Sequence record: MN850644.1
Reading direction: 5' to 3' (one strand)
DNA from: Escherichia phage ekra
Length of the DNA stretch: 64,000 nt
The notes beneath the pieces are model-generated. The model did not search any database and was not told the DNA's origin. It worked only from the letters and a program-made list of their open reading frames with translations. This document shows, piece after piece, positions 2,679 to 37,930 of this stretch (its first letter is position 1; the number at the start of each line of letters is the position of its first letter). The translations under genes and the position numbers were made by a program.

Positions 2679-4913
2679 CTAAACACCACAACCCTCGCAA
2701 TAAGCATCTTGCAGTGCAGATTTACCTACACCAATGCGACTGTTAAGGTAGTACATGGTTTTCATACCAACTGAGTTGGCATAAATCATGTACTTCAAAG
2801 CTTGAGCCAATGATACCTTCTTAGACTTTGCATAGTCAACATAGAAGTCTGAAGAAATAGCTTGACCAGTGAACTTTTGAACAATTGCATAACAATCAAT
2901 CATATCAAAGGTGTCAATATCCCAAGCAATTTCATAAACATACTTCAACTCTTCATAATCTGGAACAATAAACAGTACGTTACCAGTTGCAGATTTTTTA
3001 GTTAAAATAAAGTCACGAATTGGGTACAAGCCATTTGTCGTATTAGTTGCTAGTGAAGAACTCTCATTAGGCATGTAAGCTTCTAATACAGAGTTTCGGA
3101 TTCCACCATTCTCTTTGATACGTTGTGCTAAGTCATCCCAATCATATCTTAGTTTTGCATCATGCTTTTCATCAATCTTCTTGTTAGCTGTCTTTGGAGG
3201 AACCCAGCCTTCAGGATACTTAGTGAACTTCATGTACTCTGGAACACCACGCTCTTTAGCAAGTCTCAGAGAGGCTTCATGCAGATAGTAAGAGTGCATT
3301 TCAGCAAGCTCATGAAGCTTCGTTTTACCTGCTCGTGAAGAGTAGTTCACGTAGTTCTTCGCAAGGTAATGAGCCACATTTGTAAGGCCAATCCCAACAG
3401 AACGACGCTTCTGAACATGGTTACGCATCGACGGATACGGATAATCCATAAGGTCAATAACGGAGTCAACCATTGCAAGAGCATAATAAGCAACGTCAGC
3501 GTATTCATCTTCTGAAATTCTCCCTGCAACCAAACTAGCTAGGAAGCAAAGAGCCACCTCACCATCCTCTTTCACAGCATCATCTCTGTAAAGGTCTGTC
3601 TCTTTCTCAAAACCATACACTGGCAACACAATTTCCATACAAAGATTTGACATCTTCAATGACTCTTTAAATGGTGTATGCGTGTTTGCATTGTTAGTGA
3701 AGAATGGATACACACGACCTGTAGCATAACGCTGTTGAATAAACAGCTTAGCAATTTCACGAGCCTTTACTCGTCTGTGCTTAACTCCTGAATGTACTGC
3801 GTGACCAACTGCCATAGCAAACTCATCAGCAGATGCTGTGTAGAACATGTCATAGAGTTTTGGTGCATCTTTGTAAGAGAATAGCAACCAGTCTGTATCA
3901 TACTGAACACACTGCCAGAAATAATCGTTTGTGCCGAATGAGTAGTCCATCTCATTAATACGTTTAGAAGGAACCGTTGTAGGATGCTTCAAACGCAGTA
4001 AATCTTCAATCTGCGGGTCTAGAGCAGTGTAGAAGTTATTAGCTGAACCACCACGACTCTTCTGTTTGTTTGCCTCTACAGATGAACGTACAAGCTTATA
4101 ATAAGGCAGCTTACCCATGTGTTCAATAGTATTTTGACGGATGCCATCACCAATAGTGCGAGTCTCCATCAGCATCCCAATACCAGCTTGCTTTGTGGTC
4201 ATGTCATAGGCAACCTTTGCAGCAATACCTAGAGATTCAGCAGTATCATTCGCCTTAATCAAACAGCATGACGCATAACCTGATTTAGTAGCTCTTAAAC
4301 CGTTTAAATAAGGTGTGGGAGCATTAATCTTCAGGTCAGATAGATAAGTGTACAGCTTGATAACATCTTGCAGTCTACGGTGCTTTGGTTGCTTCTCAAA
4401 AGCTTTCATAGCCATACCCATAAACATAAATTGTGGTGACTCAAAAAGTCTTCCCGTTTTAATATCACGGATACCATACTTGTCTCTGAACTGTTTCAAG
4501 ACTGCATAACCGTAAGAGATATCTTTTGAGTGTACGATGTAACCTTGCAGGTATTCAAGCTCTTCCTGTGAATAATCCATCTTCTCCCAAAGTCCTGCTC
4601 TCTCCATATTTTTAACGAAGGTAACCAGCGTAGGAACCTTAGTAAAGCCTCCAAAGGCTTCTTTGTAGATAATACCCAAAAGCAGTCGTCCAGCCATATC
4701 TGAGTACTCTTGAGTTTGTTTATCAACACAAACATCAATCATGGCTTGGTGCATCTCTTTTGTAGTGCAACCCTCATAAACACGTTTCATGGCTTCCATA
4801 GTGACTTCTGACCAGATAATCCCACGTTTATCTGCCCATGATGCCCACTTATTCAGTCTTTCTGGGTCAAAGCTTACTACTGTACCGTTTGATTTTTTAA
4901 TTGTCTTAATCAT
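2679..4913 (-). CDS. nrdA: ribonucleotide reductase class I large (alpha) subunit NrdA
   Basis: 744-aa ORF; N-terminal ATP-cone-like segment (KKSNGTVVSFDPERLNKW), catalytic-core-like NxxC/E region, C-terminal CEGCGV tail typical of NrdA; adjacent nrdB and glutaredoxin. Confidence 0.9.
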   Translation of the reverse strand: MIKTIKKSNGTVVSFDPERLNKWASWADKRGIIWSEVTMEAMKRVYEGCTTKEMHQAMIDVCVDKQTQEYSDMAGRLLLGIIYKEAFGGFTKVPTLVTFVKNMERAGLWEKMDYSQEELEYLQGYIVHSKDISYGYAVLKQFRDKYGIRDIKTGRLFESPQFMFMGMAMKAFEKQPKHRRLQDVIKLYTYLSDLKINAPTPYLNGLRATKSGYASCCLIKANDTAESLGIAAKVAYDMTTKQAGIGMLMETRTIGDGIRQNTIEHMGKLPYYKLVRSSVEANKQKSRGGSANNFYTALDPQIEDLLRLKHPTTVPSKRINEMDYSFGTNDYFWQCVQYDTDWLLFSYKDAPKLYDMFYTASADEFAMAVGHAVHSGVKHRRVKAREIAKLFIQQRYATGRVYPFFTNNANTHTPFKESLKMSNLCMEIVLPVYGFEKETDLYRDDAVKEDGEVALCFLASLVAGRISEDEYADVAYYALAMVDSVIDLMDYPYPSMRNHVQKRRSVGIGLTNVAHYLAKNYVNYSSRAGKTKLHELAEMHSYYLHEASLRLAKERGVPEYMKFTKYPEGWVPPKTANKKIDEKHDAKLRYDWDDLAQRIKENGGIRNSVLEAYMPNESSSLATNTTNGLYPIRDFILTKKSATGNVLFIVPDYEELKYVYEIAWDIDTFDMIDCYAIVQKFTGQAISSDFYVDYAKSKKVSLAQALKYMIYANSVGMKTMYYLNSRIGVGKSALQDAYCEGCGV

Positions 4914-25702: not shown

Positions 25703-25730
25703 ACAAAAAAGGCTCCCGTAAAAAGGAGCC
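25703..25730. terminator. hairpin GGCTCC-CGTAAAAA-GGAGCC between convergent genes (terminator for minus-strand gene, possibly bidirectional)
   Basis: 6-bp GC stem at 25711..25730; T-run in minus sense (rc of AAACAAAAAA). Confidence 0.5.
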
Positions 25731-25737
25731 TTAAACT

Positions 25738-26109
25738 TTATTTTTCAGTATTCTTTGTGTTCTTTTCAGTAATAGCTTGGAGGGCTGATACTGATTGAGC
25801 CAGATTGTTCACACTGTCAGAGAATTTATCAAGAGTTTTGGTAAGTTTTGCGTTTTCACCCTTAACATTCTCTAACTGAACTTTCTGGTTCTCCATCCCT
25901 AGCTGAACCAATCTCATGTCAGACTGTAAATCACGAATAGCTGAATAGTTACTTTTGGAATAATTATCTAGCTGCTGTAACTTTGTTGTGACAGACACTT
26001 CTTGTTTACCACTTGAAACTTGCATCGTGGTATACATCCCAATAACACTAAAAATACCAACTACAATTGCACCAATATTATTTTTAAAAGCTTCCTCTAG
26101 CCACTTCAT
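25738..26109 (-). CDS. membrane-anchored coiled-coil protein (i-spanin-like, tentative)
   Basis: 123-aa ORF: N-terminal TM helix IGAIVVGIFSVIGMYTT followed by Q/L/N-rich coiled-coil; adjacent small TM protein. Confidence 0.3.
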   Translation of the reverse strand: MKWLEEAFKNNIGAIVVGIFSVIGMYTTMQVSSGKQEVSVTTKLQQLDNYSKSNYSAIRDLQSDMRLVQLGMENQKVQLENVKGENAKLTKTLDKFSDSVNNLAQSVSALQAITEKNTKNTEK

Positions 26110-26304
26110 TTATTTCTCCCCCTTAAAAGCTTTTTCTAAGTTATCTACGAACTCATCATCAATAGGTGTGTCTGTTTTACTCGCAAGGTATCTTGCAAGC
26201 TTAAAGAACACTTTCTCAATCATGTATTCACTTAGAAGGGATAAAATGAGTTTCCAGAAGAAGCTACCTAGATTTTTTAGAAGAATTGCTAGGATTGTAG
26301 GCAT
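26110..26304 (-). CDS. small transmembrane protein (holin-like, tentative)
   Basis: 64-aa ORF with one hydrophobic helix and charged C-terminus. Confidence 0.3.
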   Translation of the reverse strand: MPTILAILLKNLGSFFWKLILSLLSEYMIEKVFFKLARYLASKTDTPIDDEFVDNLEKAFKGEK

Positions 26305-26383: not shown

Positions 26384-28735
26384 TTAAGCAGTTCTCACCC
26401 AAGCCATTAACTTGTAGAACTGGTTAGTAACACTAAATGCTGAACCAGAACCTGTACCACCAGTGTTACCACTTACTGTATGTCTGTGAGCACCAATACC
26501 AACACTGTGAGCATGGTTACCAGCAGAAGCGGCAGTACCACTTACGGAGTGGGTGTGAGCACCGTTAGCATCGGTGTAACCCGGTCCTACACCAATACTA
26601 CCACCACCACCACCAGAGTAGTGTGTAGAGTTCTGACCAATCCACGAAATGGAATGGTTGTGGTTACCAGCAGATGAAGTAGAGCCACTTACAGAGTGAG
26701 TGTGAGCACCAGTCGTGTTAGTGTTTTTTGTTCCGTAGTCAAACGATGAGGTAGTCGCAGAAAAACTGTGCGTGTGCGAAGGTAAGTTACCAACAGCTAA
26801 CGTTACAGAATCTGAACCACCAGTTGTAGCAACATCTGAACCATTTGCTGCTGCAATTCTAATAGTCCTACCAACACCATTCTTCAGATACGTCCAAGTT
26901 AGGCCAGGCAGTGCTGTATTAGGGTTAACATTACTGTTAAACCACGTCACAATACCCACTGGATAGATTTTGTTAAGGTCTGTAGAGTCACTTACTGCCT
27001 GTGCAATCTTCTGGTCAGTTTCAGCTTTAGTGTATGCACCAAGCTCTGAAGGGGTTGGTTTCTGAGCCTCTGTGTAAACCTTAGACCACTTAGCCTCAAA
27101 ACCTTTACTGTCTACAGATGTTCTGTACCACATCCCACCATTTTTATACTGGAACTTTAGTTGCGCACAGGCAGTAGAAGAGGACACTCCCTGATACATT
27201 TGAAATACAAGTGATGTGTAATCACCATTTGGTGATGTTACATTATATAAGCCTGTTTTAGCGTTCCATGCCACACCATCTGCATTCTGCTCTGTAGCTT
27301 CTCCTGTAGAACCTGCAACCATGAATCTCTGATTAGCTGCTGACTGAGTGAAGTATCTAGCATCTAAGTTAGACCAATCAGAAGGTTTTACCTGTCCAGT
27401 AATCTGTAGAGATTTAGACAGAAGAATTTCGTCAGCTAAATCGAGTCTTGCACCAGTCAAGTAGTTATGGAAAGATGCAATACCAGAACCATTTGTCCCA
27501 CAACCGATAAACCACTTATTTGTGTTATCAGTATTCTTACCAACAATGTAAGAAGAATTATTCTGAGCCTTGTTGTAGATTCTTAATGCTTCACCATCAG
27601 ATTGAATATTCTGCTGTAAAGTGAATGTGTTAGCTTCATTCTTCTTAGCAAGATTTGCGTATGAACCGATAAGAACATAACGAGAGTCAATGTTAGTCCA
27701 GTCAGAAGGTTGAACTTGACCAGTTACAGTTAGTGTTTTATTGATATTAACACTTGTCCCTACAGTAATCTTGCCACTAGTTTTGTAGTTTCCTAGAGCT
27801 ACGTTATCACCTTTGTTACTATTACCAATGTACCATCTGTTGACACCTGTGCTATCAATCGCCTTAATGTACAATGGTTGTGCAGCATTGGCATTCTGTA
27901 GCCTAATTGCTTCACCATCTTTTTTGAAAACACTTAGTTGGTTGAATGTGTTTAAACCACTGAATGTGTTATTACCAACTAGCTGCGCAAATCTCTGATT
28001 AGCAACTGTCTGAGTAAAATATCTAGCATCTAAGTTAGAGAAGTCAGAAGGTTGTACTTGACCAGTGATTTGAATTGATTTATTCACAGAGATTAGGTTA
28101 GCTAAAATCGCTACGTATGCACCAGATTTAACGTTTTTTAAAACAAGGTTGTCTGTGCCTTTATTATCATTGCCTAGATACCATCTGTTAGTGCCATCTG
28201 CATCTTGACCACGAATATAGAGTGGCATCCCTTGTGTCAAATTCTTAAGAATTAACCCTTCATTGTTAGCAACAATAGTCTGAGTGGCTCTAAAGGTGTT
28301 ATTTACAGCCAGTCTTGCATATCTTGCATCATTCTCTTCATTAGTTCTCATCCCAAGTTCATTAGGGCTTGGCTTATTAAGAGTATGATAAACAGTTGCC
28401 GACCTTGAAGCATCTGCAATAGTTAGTTTAAGGTCATTTGCGTTGATTTTAAAAGTCTTTAAAACATCCCCAATAGTAATCTCAGAAGAGCCTGTTGGGT
28501 CAAAGATTGCCTTACCACCATAAAGTAACTTAACAATCCCTAAGTCACCCGTCATATTGCTACCAGCAATCTGAACAAATCTTTCGAGTTTGAAAGATGC
28601 TAAGAAGTCTTGATAAGTCATTCGACGGTCTTCATCACCAAGCATTTCAGGTCTCTTTTTAACCCTAACATGAAGAAGGTCATCTGAACGGATTGTATCG
28701 ATTGAGTTTAATTCACTCAACTTGTAATCTGCCAT
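26384..28735 (-). CDS. tail fiber protein with C-terminal His-x-His repeat domain
   Basis: 783-aa ORF; triplicated internal repeat ITGQV(Q/K)PSD(F/W)xN(L/I)D(A/S)RY; C-terminus with repeated AHTHS/GNHNHS/AHRHT motifs and terminal GSGSAFSV...WVRTA shared with ORF 28782..29930. Confidence 0.7.
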   Translation of the reverse strand: MADYKLSELNSIDTIRSDDLLHVRVKKRPEMLGDEDRRMTYQDFLASFKLERFVQIAGSNMTGDLGIVKLLYGGKAIFDPTGSSEITIGDVLKTFKINANDLKLTIADASRSATVYHTLNKPSPNELGMRTNEENDARYARLAVNNTFRATQTIVANNEGLILKNLTQGMPLYIRGQDADGTNRWYLGNDNKGTDNLVLKNVKSGAYVAILANLISVNKSIQITGQVQPSDFSNLDARYFTQTVANQRFAQLVGNNTFSGLNTFNQLSVFKKDGEAIRLQNANAAQPLYIKAIDSTGVNRWYIGNSNKGDNVALGNYKTSGKITVGTSVNINKTLTVTGQVQPSDWTNIDSRYVLIGSYANLAKKNEANTFTLQQNIQSDGEALRIYNKAQNNSSYIVGKNTDNTNKWFIGCGTNGSGIASFHNYLTGARLDLADEILLSKSLQITGQVKPSDWSNLDARYFTQSAANQRFMVAGSTGEATEQNADGVAWNAKTGLYNVTSPNGDYTSLVFQMYQGVSSSTACAQLKFQYKNGGMWYRTSVDSKGFEAKWSKVYTEAQKPTPSELGAYTKAETDQKIAQAVSDSTDLNKIYPVGIVTWFNSNVNPNTALPGLTWTYLKNGVGRTIRIAAANGSDVATTGGSDSVTLAVGNLPSHTHSFSATTSSFDYGTKNTNTTGAHTHSVSGSTSSAGNHNHSISWIGQNSTHYSGGGGGSIGVGPGYTDANGAHTHSVSGTAASAGNHAHSVGIGAHRHTVSGNTGGTGSGSAFSVTNQFYKLMAWVRTA

Positions 28736-28781
28736 TATAAATTTTCCTCTTAAAAGGGGCTATACAGCCCCTGTAAAGAAA

Positions 28782-29930
28782 TTAAGCTGTTCTCTGCCAT
28801 ACATACAATACGAAGGATGGCTGTTCAACACTAAATGCTTGACCAGAACCAGTTGGACCAGTTGTGCCAGAGTGTGAATGCTCACCTGCTCCGGTTACTG
28901 TTACTGTTGCTGAGTGGTTGTGGGAACCAATTGCAACAGAATGGTTGTGAGCACCAATCCCAACTGTGTGATTATGCGCGCCAATTGCTACAGAGTGAGT
29001 GTGGTTGTTAGCTGTTGTCAGCGTAGCTCTTGGGTCATAGCTTGCCCCCTCAACTGATAAACCTCTCCAACCACCATCAGCATAACCACGATTAATGAAT
29101 GTTGTTTGTGTTAAACCAGCAGCACTGGTTGTTCTGTTACCATAGTCATAAGTAGATACAGTCTTTGTTCCATAGTCAAACGTTGTAGTCCCTTTAGTAC
29201 CGTAGTCAAAAGCACTGATAGAGGCCGTTGCACCGTGTGTGTGACCACCACCAGTGACGTATACTGAGTGAGTGTGTGCAGGAATATTGTTAACTGTCAG
29301 TGCAGTAGTCTGCGAACCAAACGTTGAACCAACTGGCCTAGAAGCACTATCATAACCTACAAGTGCTCTTCCTTTTGAAACTAACTCCCAAGTACCCCCA
29401 CAAATTAAATATGTAGAAGGGTTTGCAGGATTCATAGAGAGATGGATAGTACCTACTGGATAAGAAGCCTGAACAGCCTTGTACAAGTTATTTACTGCTC
29501 TTGCTGTAGCATACTTATCTGCATCCTCATTATAAAGGTTAGATGTCACCCAGTTCTGAACATTGCTTAACCCAACCTGTGCCTTAGTAGTATTGTGTGG
29601 GTTGCTCTTATCATCAATATGTTGTTGAATAAGATTATTAACCTCTTCTGAAGACATAATCTGTAGATTTGCTCTTGCCTCAGCTACATTAACAATGTCT
29701 GATAAGTTATTTTCAGCAACTAACTGGAGAGCATTAATAACGTTATCTAAACCAATTTGTGTCTTAGTAACACCATGAGGGTTATTTCTTAGGCTTGAGT
29801 GTGGAGCAAGTAATTGCTCAAGAGTACATCTCTTATCCTCGATACCCTGTTTAAGATGGAAGATATCACTAAGGTCAATTGGTAAGGCTGCTTGAGGCAA
29901 GGCACTAATTTGAATTTCACCTACTGCCAT
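28782..29930 (-). CDS. tail fiber protein, second paralog with His-x-His repeats
   Basis: 382-aa ORF; C-terminal HTHSVAIGAHNHTVGIGAHNHSVAIGSHNHS and GSGQAFSV...WQRTA. Confidence 0.7.
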   Translation of the reverse strand: MAVGEIQISALPQAALPIDLSDIFHLKQGIEDKRCTLEQLLAPHSSLRNNPHGVTKTQIGLDNVINALQLVAENNLSDIVNVAEARANLQIMSSEEVNNLIQQHIDDKSNPHNTTKAQVGLSNVQNWVTSNLYNEDADKYATARAVNNLYKAVQASYPVGTIHLSMNPANPSTYLICGGTWELVSKGRALVGYDSASRPVGSTFGSQTTALTVNNIPAHTHSVYVTGGGHTHGATASISAFDYGTKGTTTFDYGTKTVSTYDYGNRTTSAAGLTQTTFINRGYADGGWRGLSVEGASYDPRATLTTANNHTHSVAIGAHNHTVGIGAHNHSVAIGSHNHSATVTVTGAGEHSHSGTTGPTGSGQAFSVEQPSFVLYVWQRTA

Positions 29931-29932
29931 TA

Positions 29933-37930
<7,998 letters not shown>

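Follow-up and report, generated by a model that had tools for sequence, protein, structure and literature searches.

The closest described counterparts of the tail fibers studied here are those of phage Bas63 (JohannRWettstein), for which cryo-electron microscopy (cryo-EM; Sci Adv 2025, PMC12609058) revealed a short fiber, gp26, of 430 Å and a long fiber, gp27, of 630 Å, in both of which the N-terminal baseplate-binding domain is structurally conserved and collar, needle and head are like those of T4 gp37. In combination with AlphaFold, that work described seven His-x-His (HxH) motifs in the short fiber and six in the long one, a chain that reverses its direction at the head and returns to the collar and, in the long fiber, five β-helix repeat domains parted by triple-helix-and-turn motifs, resembling T4 gp34 (PMC12609058). 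The same two fibers were reported for phage Sf14, with T7 gp17-like, Mu-like and gp37-like parts being noted (PMC11821841), and the VpaE1 paper of 2015 had already pointed out a resemblance of both fiber proteins to the T4 gp37 adhesin, together with high variability in the central part of the larger protein. With regard to receptors, Bas63 requires an intact lipopolysaccharide (LPS) core, and VpaE1 uses a truncated core; a PhageMaP essentiality preprint on Bas63 and a 2026 receptor-prediction preprint contained no usable data on the present fibers or their receptors. In the T4 gp37 tip itself (PDB 2XGF), which is made up of collar, needle and head, seven Fe sites lie on HxH motifs, the functionally mapped tip residues are 929–959, and replacement by alanine at many positions from 929 to 949 prevents plaque formation (Islam 2019). 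Here, we analyzed a 64,000-nucleotide (nt) stretch, hereafter the window, of Escherichia phage ekra (MN850644.1), a deposited phage from Danish wastewater, in which two adjacent open reading frames (ORFs) on the minus strand encode putative tail fibers of 783 amino acids (aa; 26384..28735) and 382 aa (28782..29930). An earlier note, made from the sequence alone, had placed two tail fibers, the larger one of 783 aa, at 26384–29930, which the ORFs confirm.

The two genes very probably encode the long and the short homotrimeric tail fibers of a Felixounavirus, built on one common plan that comprises a baseplate-binding N-terminus, a stalk and a T4 gp37-type module. The region showed 91–97% DNA identity to many Escherichia Felixounavirus genomes, with 95% over its whole length and 243 phage records matching, and the window is, judged by its sequence, a Felixounavirus (Felix O1-like coliphage). 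The 783-aa protein, which is 100% identical to the deposited ‘tail fibers protein’ of ekra, is the orthologue of Bas63 gp27 and Sf14 gp53, and the 382-aa protein that of Bas63 gp26 and Sf14 gp52. In line with this, the long fiber matched phrog_4277 (listed as ‘tail fiber protein’) end to end, i.e., residues 1–783 over 780 profile positions, and the short fiber matched phrog_2097. In comparison with 13 Ounavirinae relatives, the long fiber was 54–94% identical and the short fiber 68–99.5% identical.

Gene order and protein lengths reproduce those of bas63_0023 to bas63_0027 (Bas63 gp23–gp27), a phage of the same genus, with the long fiber being syntenic with bas63_0027. The lengths are near-equal (783 versus 784 aa for the long fiber, 382 versus 382 aa for the short one), and the HxH counts of 6 and 7 are the same. 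The short fiber was 97.6% identical to its Bas63 orthologue, with an identical head, and the long fiber was 69% identical overall, with values of 82–100% in the N-terminus, collar, needle, head and C-terminus. This contrasted with the β bodies of the shaft, which were 30–52% identical and belonged to other cassette types; a further difference is found at residues 691–694, where ekra has NHNH instead of the HHxH noted by the Bas63 authors (PMC12609058). Thus, fiber positions, lengths and domain architecture have been shown by others on close orthologues, and the architecture of the fiber pair is already known from close relatives; what the present analysis provides are the homologies, the motif counts, the repeat anatomy, the synteny and a map of variability.

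The assignment of the C-terminal regions to the gp37 type was obtained with independent searches. A phmmer search against the PDB matched the T4 gp37 tip 2XGF (residues 785–1026) to residues 585–762 of the long fiber (E = 1.5e-17) and to residues 146–352 of the short fiber (E = 4.2e-14), and BLASTP against T4 gp37 gave 37% identity for the long fiber tip (86.7 bits) and 32% for the short fiber tip. A hidden Markov model (HMM) match to PF03335 was also found for the C-terminal regions of the fibers. PF21939 (Gp10_C) was matched by the short fiber with 65.5 bits, above the cut-off of 27, and in the long fiber it reached 22.8 bits, under that cut-off; residues 143–222 of the short fiber also matched the structures 2FKK and 5HX2 of the T4 gp10 C-terminal domain. 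These gp10-type matches fall on the collar, which precedes the needle. Pfam matches to YmaF, TolB_N, DUF1615 and others were under their cut-offs and were set aside.

HxH motifs occur six times in the long fiber (residues 654, 678, 692, 727, 741 and 750) and seven times in the short fiber (residues 219, 230, 310, 319, 328, 337 and 351), whereas residue shuffles contained, on average, 0.3 (at most 3) and 1.0 (at most 5), respectively. In an alignment of 67 sequences, none of the twelve His residues that make up the six long fiber motifs varied. In a three-way alignment of the long fiber, the short fiber and T4 gp37, for which T4 domain limits and metal sites were taken from Islam 2019 and from the Bas63 paper (PMC12609058), the long fiber motifs aligned one-to-one with H883, H915 and H929 of the descending and H966, H980 and H989 of the ascending T4 strand, with no long fiber counterpart to T4's seventh motif (H998). 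The short fiber carries two HxH and three (F/Y)DYG(T/N)(K/R) motifs in its descending strand and five HxH in its ascending strand. Descending and ascending counts are therefore 3 + 3 in the long fiber, 2 + 5 in the short fiber and 3 + 4 in T4. These results, together with the Bas63 orthologues (69% identical for the long and 98% for the short fiber, with the same architecture), bear out the earlier note in taking both proteins for tail fibers with a T4 gp37-type HxH needle. Its motif (A/G)H(T/N/R)H(S/T) was drawn too narrowly: HxH is indeed repeated in both proteins, but that pattern fits only some of the copies.

The likeness to T4 gp37 extends over the collar, the two strands of the needle and the position of the head. 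HxH motifs are in register, FDYGTK motifs are shared, and the hydrophobic strand at the C-terminus ends in R-x-A. The differences are that identity is only 32–37%, that the long fiber has six HxH motifs rather than seven and the short fiber 2 + 5 rather than 3 + 4, that the ending TGSG.AFSV....W.RTA is specific to the Felix O1-type group, and that the module is carried here on a single-protein fiber and in T4 on a four-protein long fiber. No homologue of the T4 gp38 chaperone was found in the 64-kb window, out of a genome of ~87 kb (a single tblastn match of 35 aa, E = 0.2; gp57A was not searched); dependence on gp38 (and gp57A) is a feature of T4 assembly and not of the fold.

The domain map of both fibers was combined with a variability map, for which the 13 relatives were aligned first, followed by the 120 cluster representatives with the best scores, drawn from 1,037 proteins at E ≤ 1e-30; since these 120 homologues are the best matches to the window protein, the sample is biased toward its relatives. 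Sequence types were defined at 70% identity. The N-terminal baseplate-binding region of the long fiber (aa 1–118; 28382..28735; all coordinates given here for the fibers are on the minus strand) was of a single type, with a mean pairwise identity of 0.95, and the collar (aa 589–648; 26792..26971), which aligned to the T4 gp37 collar in 2XGF, showed a value of 0.96. The collar is followed by the descending needle strand (aa 649–694; 26654..26791), with HxH at 654, 678 and 692 and one FDYGTK motif, by the head (aa 695–726, SISWIGQNSTHYSGGGGGSIGVGPGYTDANGA; 26558..26653) and by the ascending needle strand together with the C-terminal segment TGSGSAFSVTNQFYKLMAWVRTA (26387..26557), with HxH at 727, 741 and 750. 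The head, which is predicted to be the receptor-contacting tip at the point of chain reversal, aligned to T4 gp37 932–965, a stretch that includes functionally critical residues, and was present as 7 sequence types among the homologues. The C-terminal segment (mean pairwise identity of 0.98) would by homology return to the collar, with its topology being taken from T4 and Bas63.

In the short fiber, the N-terminal baseplate-binding region (aa 1–45) and the stalk (aa 46–152), which carries NPH..TK.Q.GL.NV motifs, are conserved across relatives (29475..29930). They precede the collar (aa 153–213) and the descending needle strand (aa 214–262; HxH at 219 and 230), both within 29145..29474, the head (about aa 263–306, YGNRTTSAAGLTQTTFINRGYADGGWRGLSVEGASYDPRATLTT; 29013..29144), placed by the three-way alignment opposite the same T4 residues 932–965, and the ascending needle strand with the C-terminal segment TGSGQAFSVEQPSFVLYVWQRTA (28785..29012; HxH at 310, 319, 328, 337 and 351). 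This head was 100% identical in the Escherichia coli felixounaviruses Bas63, radambza, LNA1, Alf5, allfine, CL1 and ESCO50, and only 13–26% identical in VSe11, Mijalis, Henu11 and LF110P1. The short fiber as a whole was 97–99.5% identical among the sampled E. coli felixounaviruses, whose long fibers differ by 6–31%; because the short fiber is near-invariant while the long fibers diverge, the two fibers evolve under very different regimes.

Based on these homologies and on the Bas63 structure, the following arrangement is proposed. Six long and six short trimeric fibers would be suspended from the baseplate and stay alongside the sheath up to their release, with the N-terminus of the long fiber sitting on a 100-aa platform protein and that of the short fiber on a baseplate wedge protein. 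In the gp37-type module, the collar would lead into a needle of six strands, with each chain descending, turning in a small head and ascending again, so that the C-terminus would pack against the collar. The HxH motifs of three chains would form one octahedral metal site, giving six such sites in the long and seven in the short fiber, and the metal ion held by each triplet may stiffen the needle. As for metal identity, receptor and division of labor between the fibers, we infer that the ion may be Fe2+, as in T4, that the head at the hairpin turn would be the likely contact with the LPS core and that, by analogy with T4, the long fiber may scan reversibly and the short fiber commit. The extra length of the long fiber would come from four β domains, i.e., three clear repeats and one Mu S-like domain.

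Several observations weigh against this arrangement. In an AlphaFold2 (AF2) monomer of the whole long fiber, computed from the 67-sequence alignment, the intertwined N-terminus and the tip had a block-mean predicted local distance difference test (pLDDT) score of 28–46; over residues 581–783 it was 28–42, with the model being uninformative for the tip, so that support for the hairpin topology comes from homology and from what was reported for Bas63. The density of the Bas63 fibers, for its part, permitted only domain-level fitting (PMC12609058). The short fiber has (F/Y)DYG motifs in place of the second and third descending HxH motifs of T4, which means that its needle does not simply replicate that of T4. 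Finally, the Sf14 paper places a C24-like domain in the middle of the shorter fiber and suggests receptor contacts nearer to the baseplate than the tip (PMC11821841).

The shaft of the long fiber is modular and built from repeats, as the earlier note had proposed upon finding three ITGQV-type linkers and three NRWY-type segments, all of which are present (linkers at residues 223, 337 and 445; NRWYLG at 183, NRWYIG at 299 and NKWFIG at 406). Unit 1 (aa 128–245; 28001..28354) has its body at 146–220, followed by the linker ITGQVQPSDFSNLDARY; unit 2 (aa 246–359; 27659..28000) has its body at 259–334, followed by VTGQVQPSDWTNIDSRY; and unit 3 (aa 360–467; 27335..27658) has its body at 373–442, followed by ITGQVKPSDWSNLDARY. 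PF20744 (gp37_trimer) matched three stretches of the long fiber, that of unit 1 covering residues 159–248, with 213.1 bits against a cut-off of 21.7 (E = 3.9e-64). A fourth, divergent β domain of the Mu S / P2 H fiber type (aa 473–556; 27068..27319) matched PF12604 (gp37_C) with 66.3 bits (cut-off of 22.5); residues 469–578 matched the Mu fiber structure 8JU3 (E = 8.8e-17), which was also the top Foldseek match of this domain. The β domains are joined by conserved P-S-D/E...D-x-R-Y linkers, and conserved K-P-S/T-P-x-E-L-G linkers are located at residues 121 and 559.

The AF2 monomer contained four confident β domains, at roughly 151–230, 261–340, 381–450 and 481–540, with block-mean pLDDT values mostly of 70–91 (56–82 over residues 151–230, unit 1; 70–91 over 261–340, unit 2). 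The best fold matches of these domains in the PDB were the Mu fiber, T4 gp34 and T7 gp17 (Foldseek), and in unit 3, for which Foldseek likewise returned T7 gp17, residues 381–448 matched the T7 gp17 fragment 4A0U/4A0T also by sequence (E of about 1e-3). Hence, the shaft bodies resemble T7 gp17 and Mu S by sequence, and Mu, T4 gp34 and T7 gp17 by fold, with the N.WYIG motif being common to T7 gp17 and the long fiber. In contrast to T7 and Mu, in which they form the terminal receptor-binding part, they are here internal shaft modules placed before a gp37-type tip; no Mu-type chaperone gene adjoins the long fiber gene at this locus. The units are 32–44% identical in aa and 49–57% in DNA among themselves, unit 2 being 42% (aa) and 52% (DNA) identical to unit 1, and unit 3 being 44% identical in aa to unit 1 and 32% to unit 2; the regions of linkers 1 and 3 form a 117-nt direct repeat with 79% identity (27990–28106 and 27324–27440). 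The internal triplication is thus old and belongs to a longer series with a divergent Mu S-like fourth unit. The triplicated repeat described in the earlier note holds as far as three clear sequence repeats are concerned; as a count of domains it was incomplete, with five β domains being present in the Bas63 structure.

Across the 120 homologues, the most variable parts of the long fiber were β bodies 1 to 4, with 10, 11, 14 and 11 types, respectively. N-terminus, collar, needle strands, C-terminus and most linkers were of a single type (mean pairwise identity of 0.72–0.98), with more than one type being found for linker 3 (three types) and linker 1 (two types). Pairwise identities were bimodal. 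Types were reassorted into 66 combinations in the 120 representatives, with an adjusted mutual information between positions of 0.01–0.37, and DNA identity to individual relatives switched from at least 90% to less than 75% at the borders between bodies and linkers. Moreover, the identity of some body 1 cassettes to body 3 cassettes from other phages reached 87%. The shaft domains thus act as separate cassettes, each reassorting independently of the others at the conserved linkers, and the existence of discrete, reassorting types favors exchange by recombination over a simple build-up of tolerated mutations. The Bas63 publication noted the variability without a recombination analysis; its authors considered the variability of the shaft domains unexpected and gave three explanations, host recognition or escape from defence among them (PMC12609058).

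This raises an alternative view of recognition, according to which host range would be set largely by variable shaft domains that bind glycans laterally, and not by the head only, or in which the domains vary to escape host defence. We consider this possible, though clearly less probable than recognition through the tip. Variability is concentrated in the bodies (against 7 types for the head and one for most other segments), identities are bimodal, types reassort and DNA breakpoints at body/linker borders are sharp, a pattern that fits such a role and, equally, could be produced by relaxed constraint plus recombination. Support from the literature comes from the Bas63 authors, who name host recognition or escape from defence as possible explanations (PMC12609058), from the Sf14 authors, who suggest receptor contacts proximal to the tip (PMC11821841), and from a Salmonella felixounavirus in which variants at long fiber aa 497 and 534 rose during a 12-h host challenge (PMC6669636); if the numbering is equivalent, these variants fall in the Mu S-like fourth body and not in the gp37-like tip. 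On the other side, the 120 sequences behind this view are a sample biased toward the window protein, and the domains may instead be shaped by touching the sheath while the fibers are retracted (PMC12609058). A related, tentative extension is that the shaft constitutes a combinatorial array with at least 10 types at each of the three repeat positions, which would reassort almost independently via the P-S-D...D-x-R-Y linkers and sometimes move between positions 1 and 3, that its diversity may be kept by contact of shaft domains with host glycans or by defence targeting, and that HxH motifs may serve as recombination handles for head exchange between the two fibers of one phage, in the manner of the Salmonella felixounaviruses.

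The reading preferred here, i.e., two fibers of one plan with their heads at the tip, was also compared with the possibility that they are recent tandem duplicates whose tips still share one receptor specificity. The genes are adjacent and on the same strand, with a common collar, HxH strands and C-terminal ending, and a weak N-terminal match, D..H...EDRR(M/C)T....LA, with a score reached by 7 of 1000 shuffles, is present in both proteins and fits an ancient paralogy of the two fibers. The long fiber ends in TGSGSAFSVTNQFYKLMAWVRTA and the short fiber in TGSGQAFSVEQPSFVLYVWQRTA, with 13 of 23 positions identical; the earlier note had rightly pointed to a conserved terminal motif, and its wording of a ‘near-identical’ segment was overstated. 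Composition-adjusted BLASTP of the C-termini gave 36% identity over 236 columns (E = 5e-21, 82 bits), with many gaps, which is no closer than the similarity of either tip to T4 gp37 (37 and 32%), and DNA similarity between the two genes is confined to three patches of 22–36 nt. In addition, the head segments do not align. The gene pair is found in three Ounavirinae genera, Felixounavirus, Suspvirus and Mooglevirus, and therefore any duplication is older than these genera. In view of the identities among the units, the short DNA patches and the tip comparison, recent duplication, which the earlier note had suggested, was rejected, and we regard it as highly improbable.

The notion of a ‘shared tip’ does not hold for phage ekra either. 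The receptor-contacting head would be the segment halfway through the HxH motifs at which the chain makes its hairpin turn, a segment that is wholly different between the two fibers, and the shared C-terminal segment would return to the collar; the head segments cannot be aligned, and what the two fibers share is scaffold (collar, HxH strands and terminal segment) and not tip. With heads unrelated in sequence, the two fibers probably read different surface features or act in sequence, and dual receptor specificity is plausible because their heads differ.

A shared tip would instead apply to the Salmonella clade. In Salmonella virus VSe11, the long and the short fiber share a segment of ~89 aa that includes the head, with about 80% aa and 77% DNA identity (3490–3756 versus 1034–1300 of the VSe11 record L008), a sharing that also speaks for recent duplication. 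In the spread sample of records listed, 8 of 8 Salmonella felixounaviruses had two or three places matching this segment, and most E. coli felixounaviruses had one. Sharing of the VSe11 type suggests an exchange of heads between the two fiber genes at conserved HxH motifs. In T-even phages, recombination at a ‘His box’ in the gp37/gp38 adhesins has reportedly been described (work of Tetart et al. from 1996 and 1998). The likeness is that short conserved motifs flank variable receptor-binding segments there, as HxH motifs flank the shared head segment in the Salmonella felixounaviruses, and the difference is that sharing between the two genes of the window is limited to the 22–36-nt patches.

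A purely compositional origin of the C-terminal likeness, as low complexity without homology or structural meaning, was rejected as next to impossible: although the region is rich in Gly, Ser, Thr and His and has short tandem-like motifs, the composition-adjusted E value of 5e-21 obtained in the pairwise C-terminal alignment that the earlier note had called for, a match that starts in the His-free collar (YPVG...TW...G), the independent HMM matches to the T4 gp37 tip 2XGF, Gp10_C and PF03335, and HxH counts far above those of shuffles, with twelve His invariant in 67 sequences, all speak against it.

With regard to the neighborhood, the fiber pair occupies the position typical of Felixounavirus, after the baseplate wedge and 100-aa platform genes on the same strand, as seen in the ORF map in comparison with Bas63 and five other relatives. 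On the minus strand, a 100-aa ORF, a 285-aa ORF and a gene for a 489-aa Baseplate_J protein lie 5' of the pair; 3' of it lie two small membrane-type ORFs, followed by convergent thymidylate synthase and dihydrofolate reductase genes. The 100-aa protein (29933..30235, minus strand), directly upstream of the short fiber gene, is by synteny with bas63_0025 the orthologue of Bas63 gp25, the platform trimer to which the long fiber attaches and which is described as topologically like T4 gp9 (cryo-EM, PMC12609058). It matched phrog_4141, listed with function unknown, and gave no Pfam match; for this protein, family libraries and most genome annotations trail behind the Bas63 structure.

The two small ORFs downstream of the long fiber gene (64 and 123 aa; 25738–26304, minus strand) have hydrophobic N-terminal regions and matched phrog_402 and phrog_4038, respectively, for neither of which PHROGs gives a function; the 123-aa ORF is labelled ‘holin’ or ‘putative holin’ in some relatives. 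A scan of the region for promoters and terminators found nothing over shuffle expectation except a bidirectional hairpin terminator after these small genes, at 25709–25732, between them and the convergent thymidylate synthase gene. A homologue of the long fiber with 72% identity, located on an 88,424-bp contig, is filed in NCBI and UniRef as ‘tail fiber protein [Methanobrevibacter gottschalkii]’, an entry that is probably explained by contamination of an archaeal assembly with a Felixounavirus genome. Further entries of this kind carry the names E. coli ST131 and Shigella sonnei.

For the window alone, these results are of little consequence, as it holds the annotated fibers of a deposited phage with an architecture published for close relatives. 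For the Felix O1-type phages, they provide a map that sets a scaffold, formed by the N-terminus, linkers, collar, HxH strands and C-terminus, apart from candidate specificity determinants, namely the four cassettes of the shaft and the heads, which differ between the two fibers. Natural exchange at conserved junctions suggests that these may be cut-and-paste sites for re-targeting Felix O1-type phages in diagnostics and therapy.

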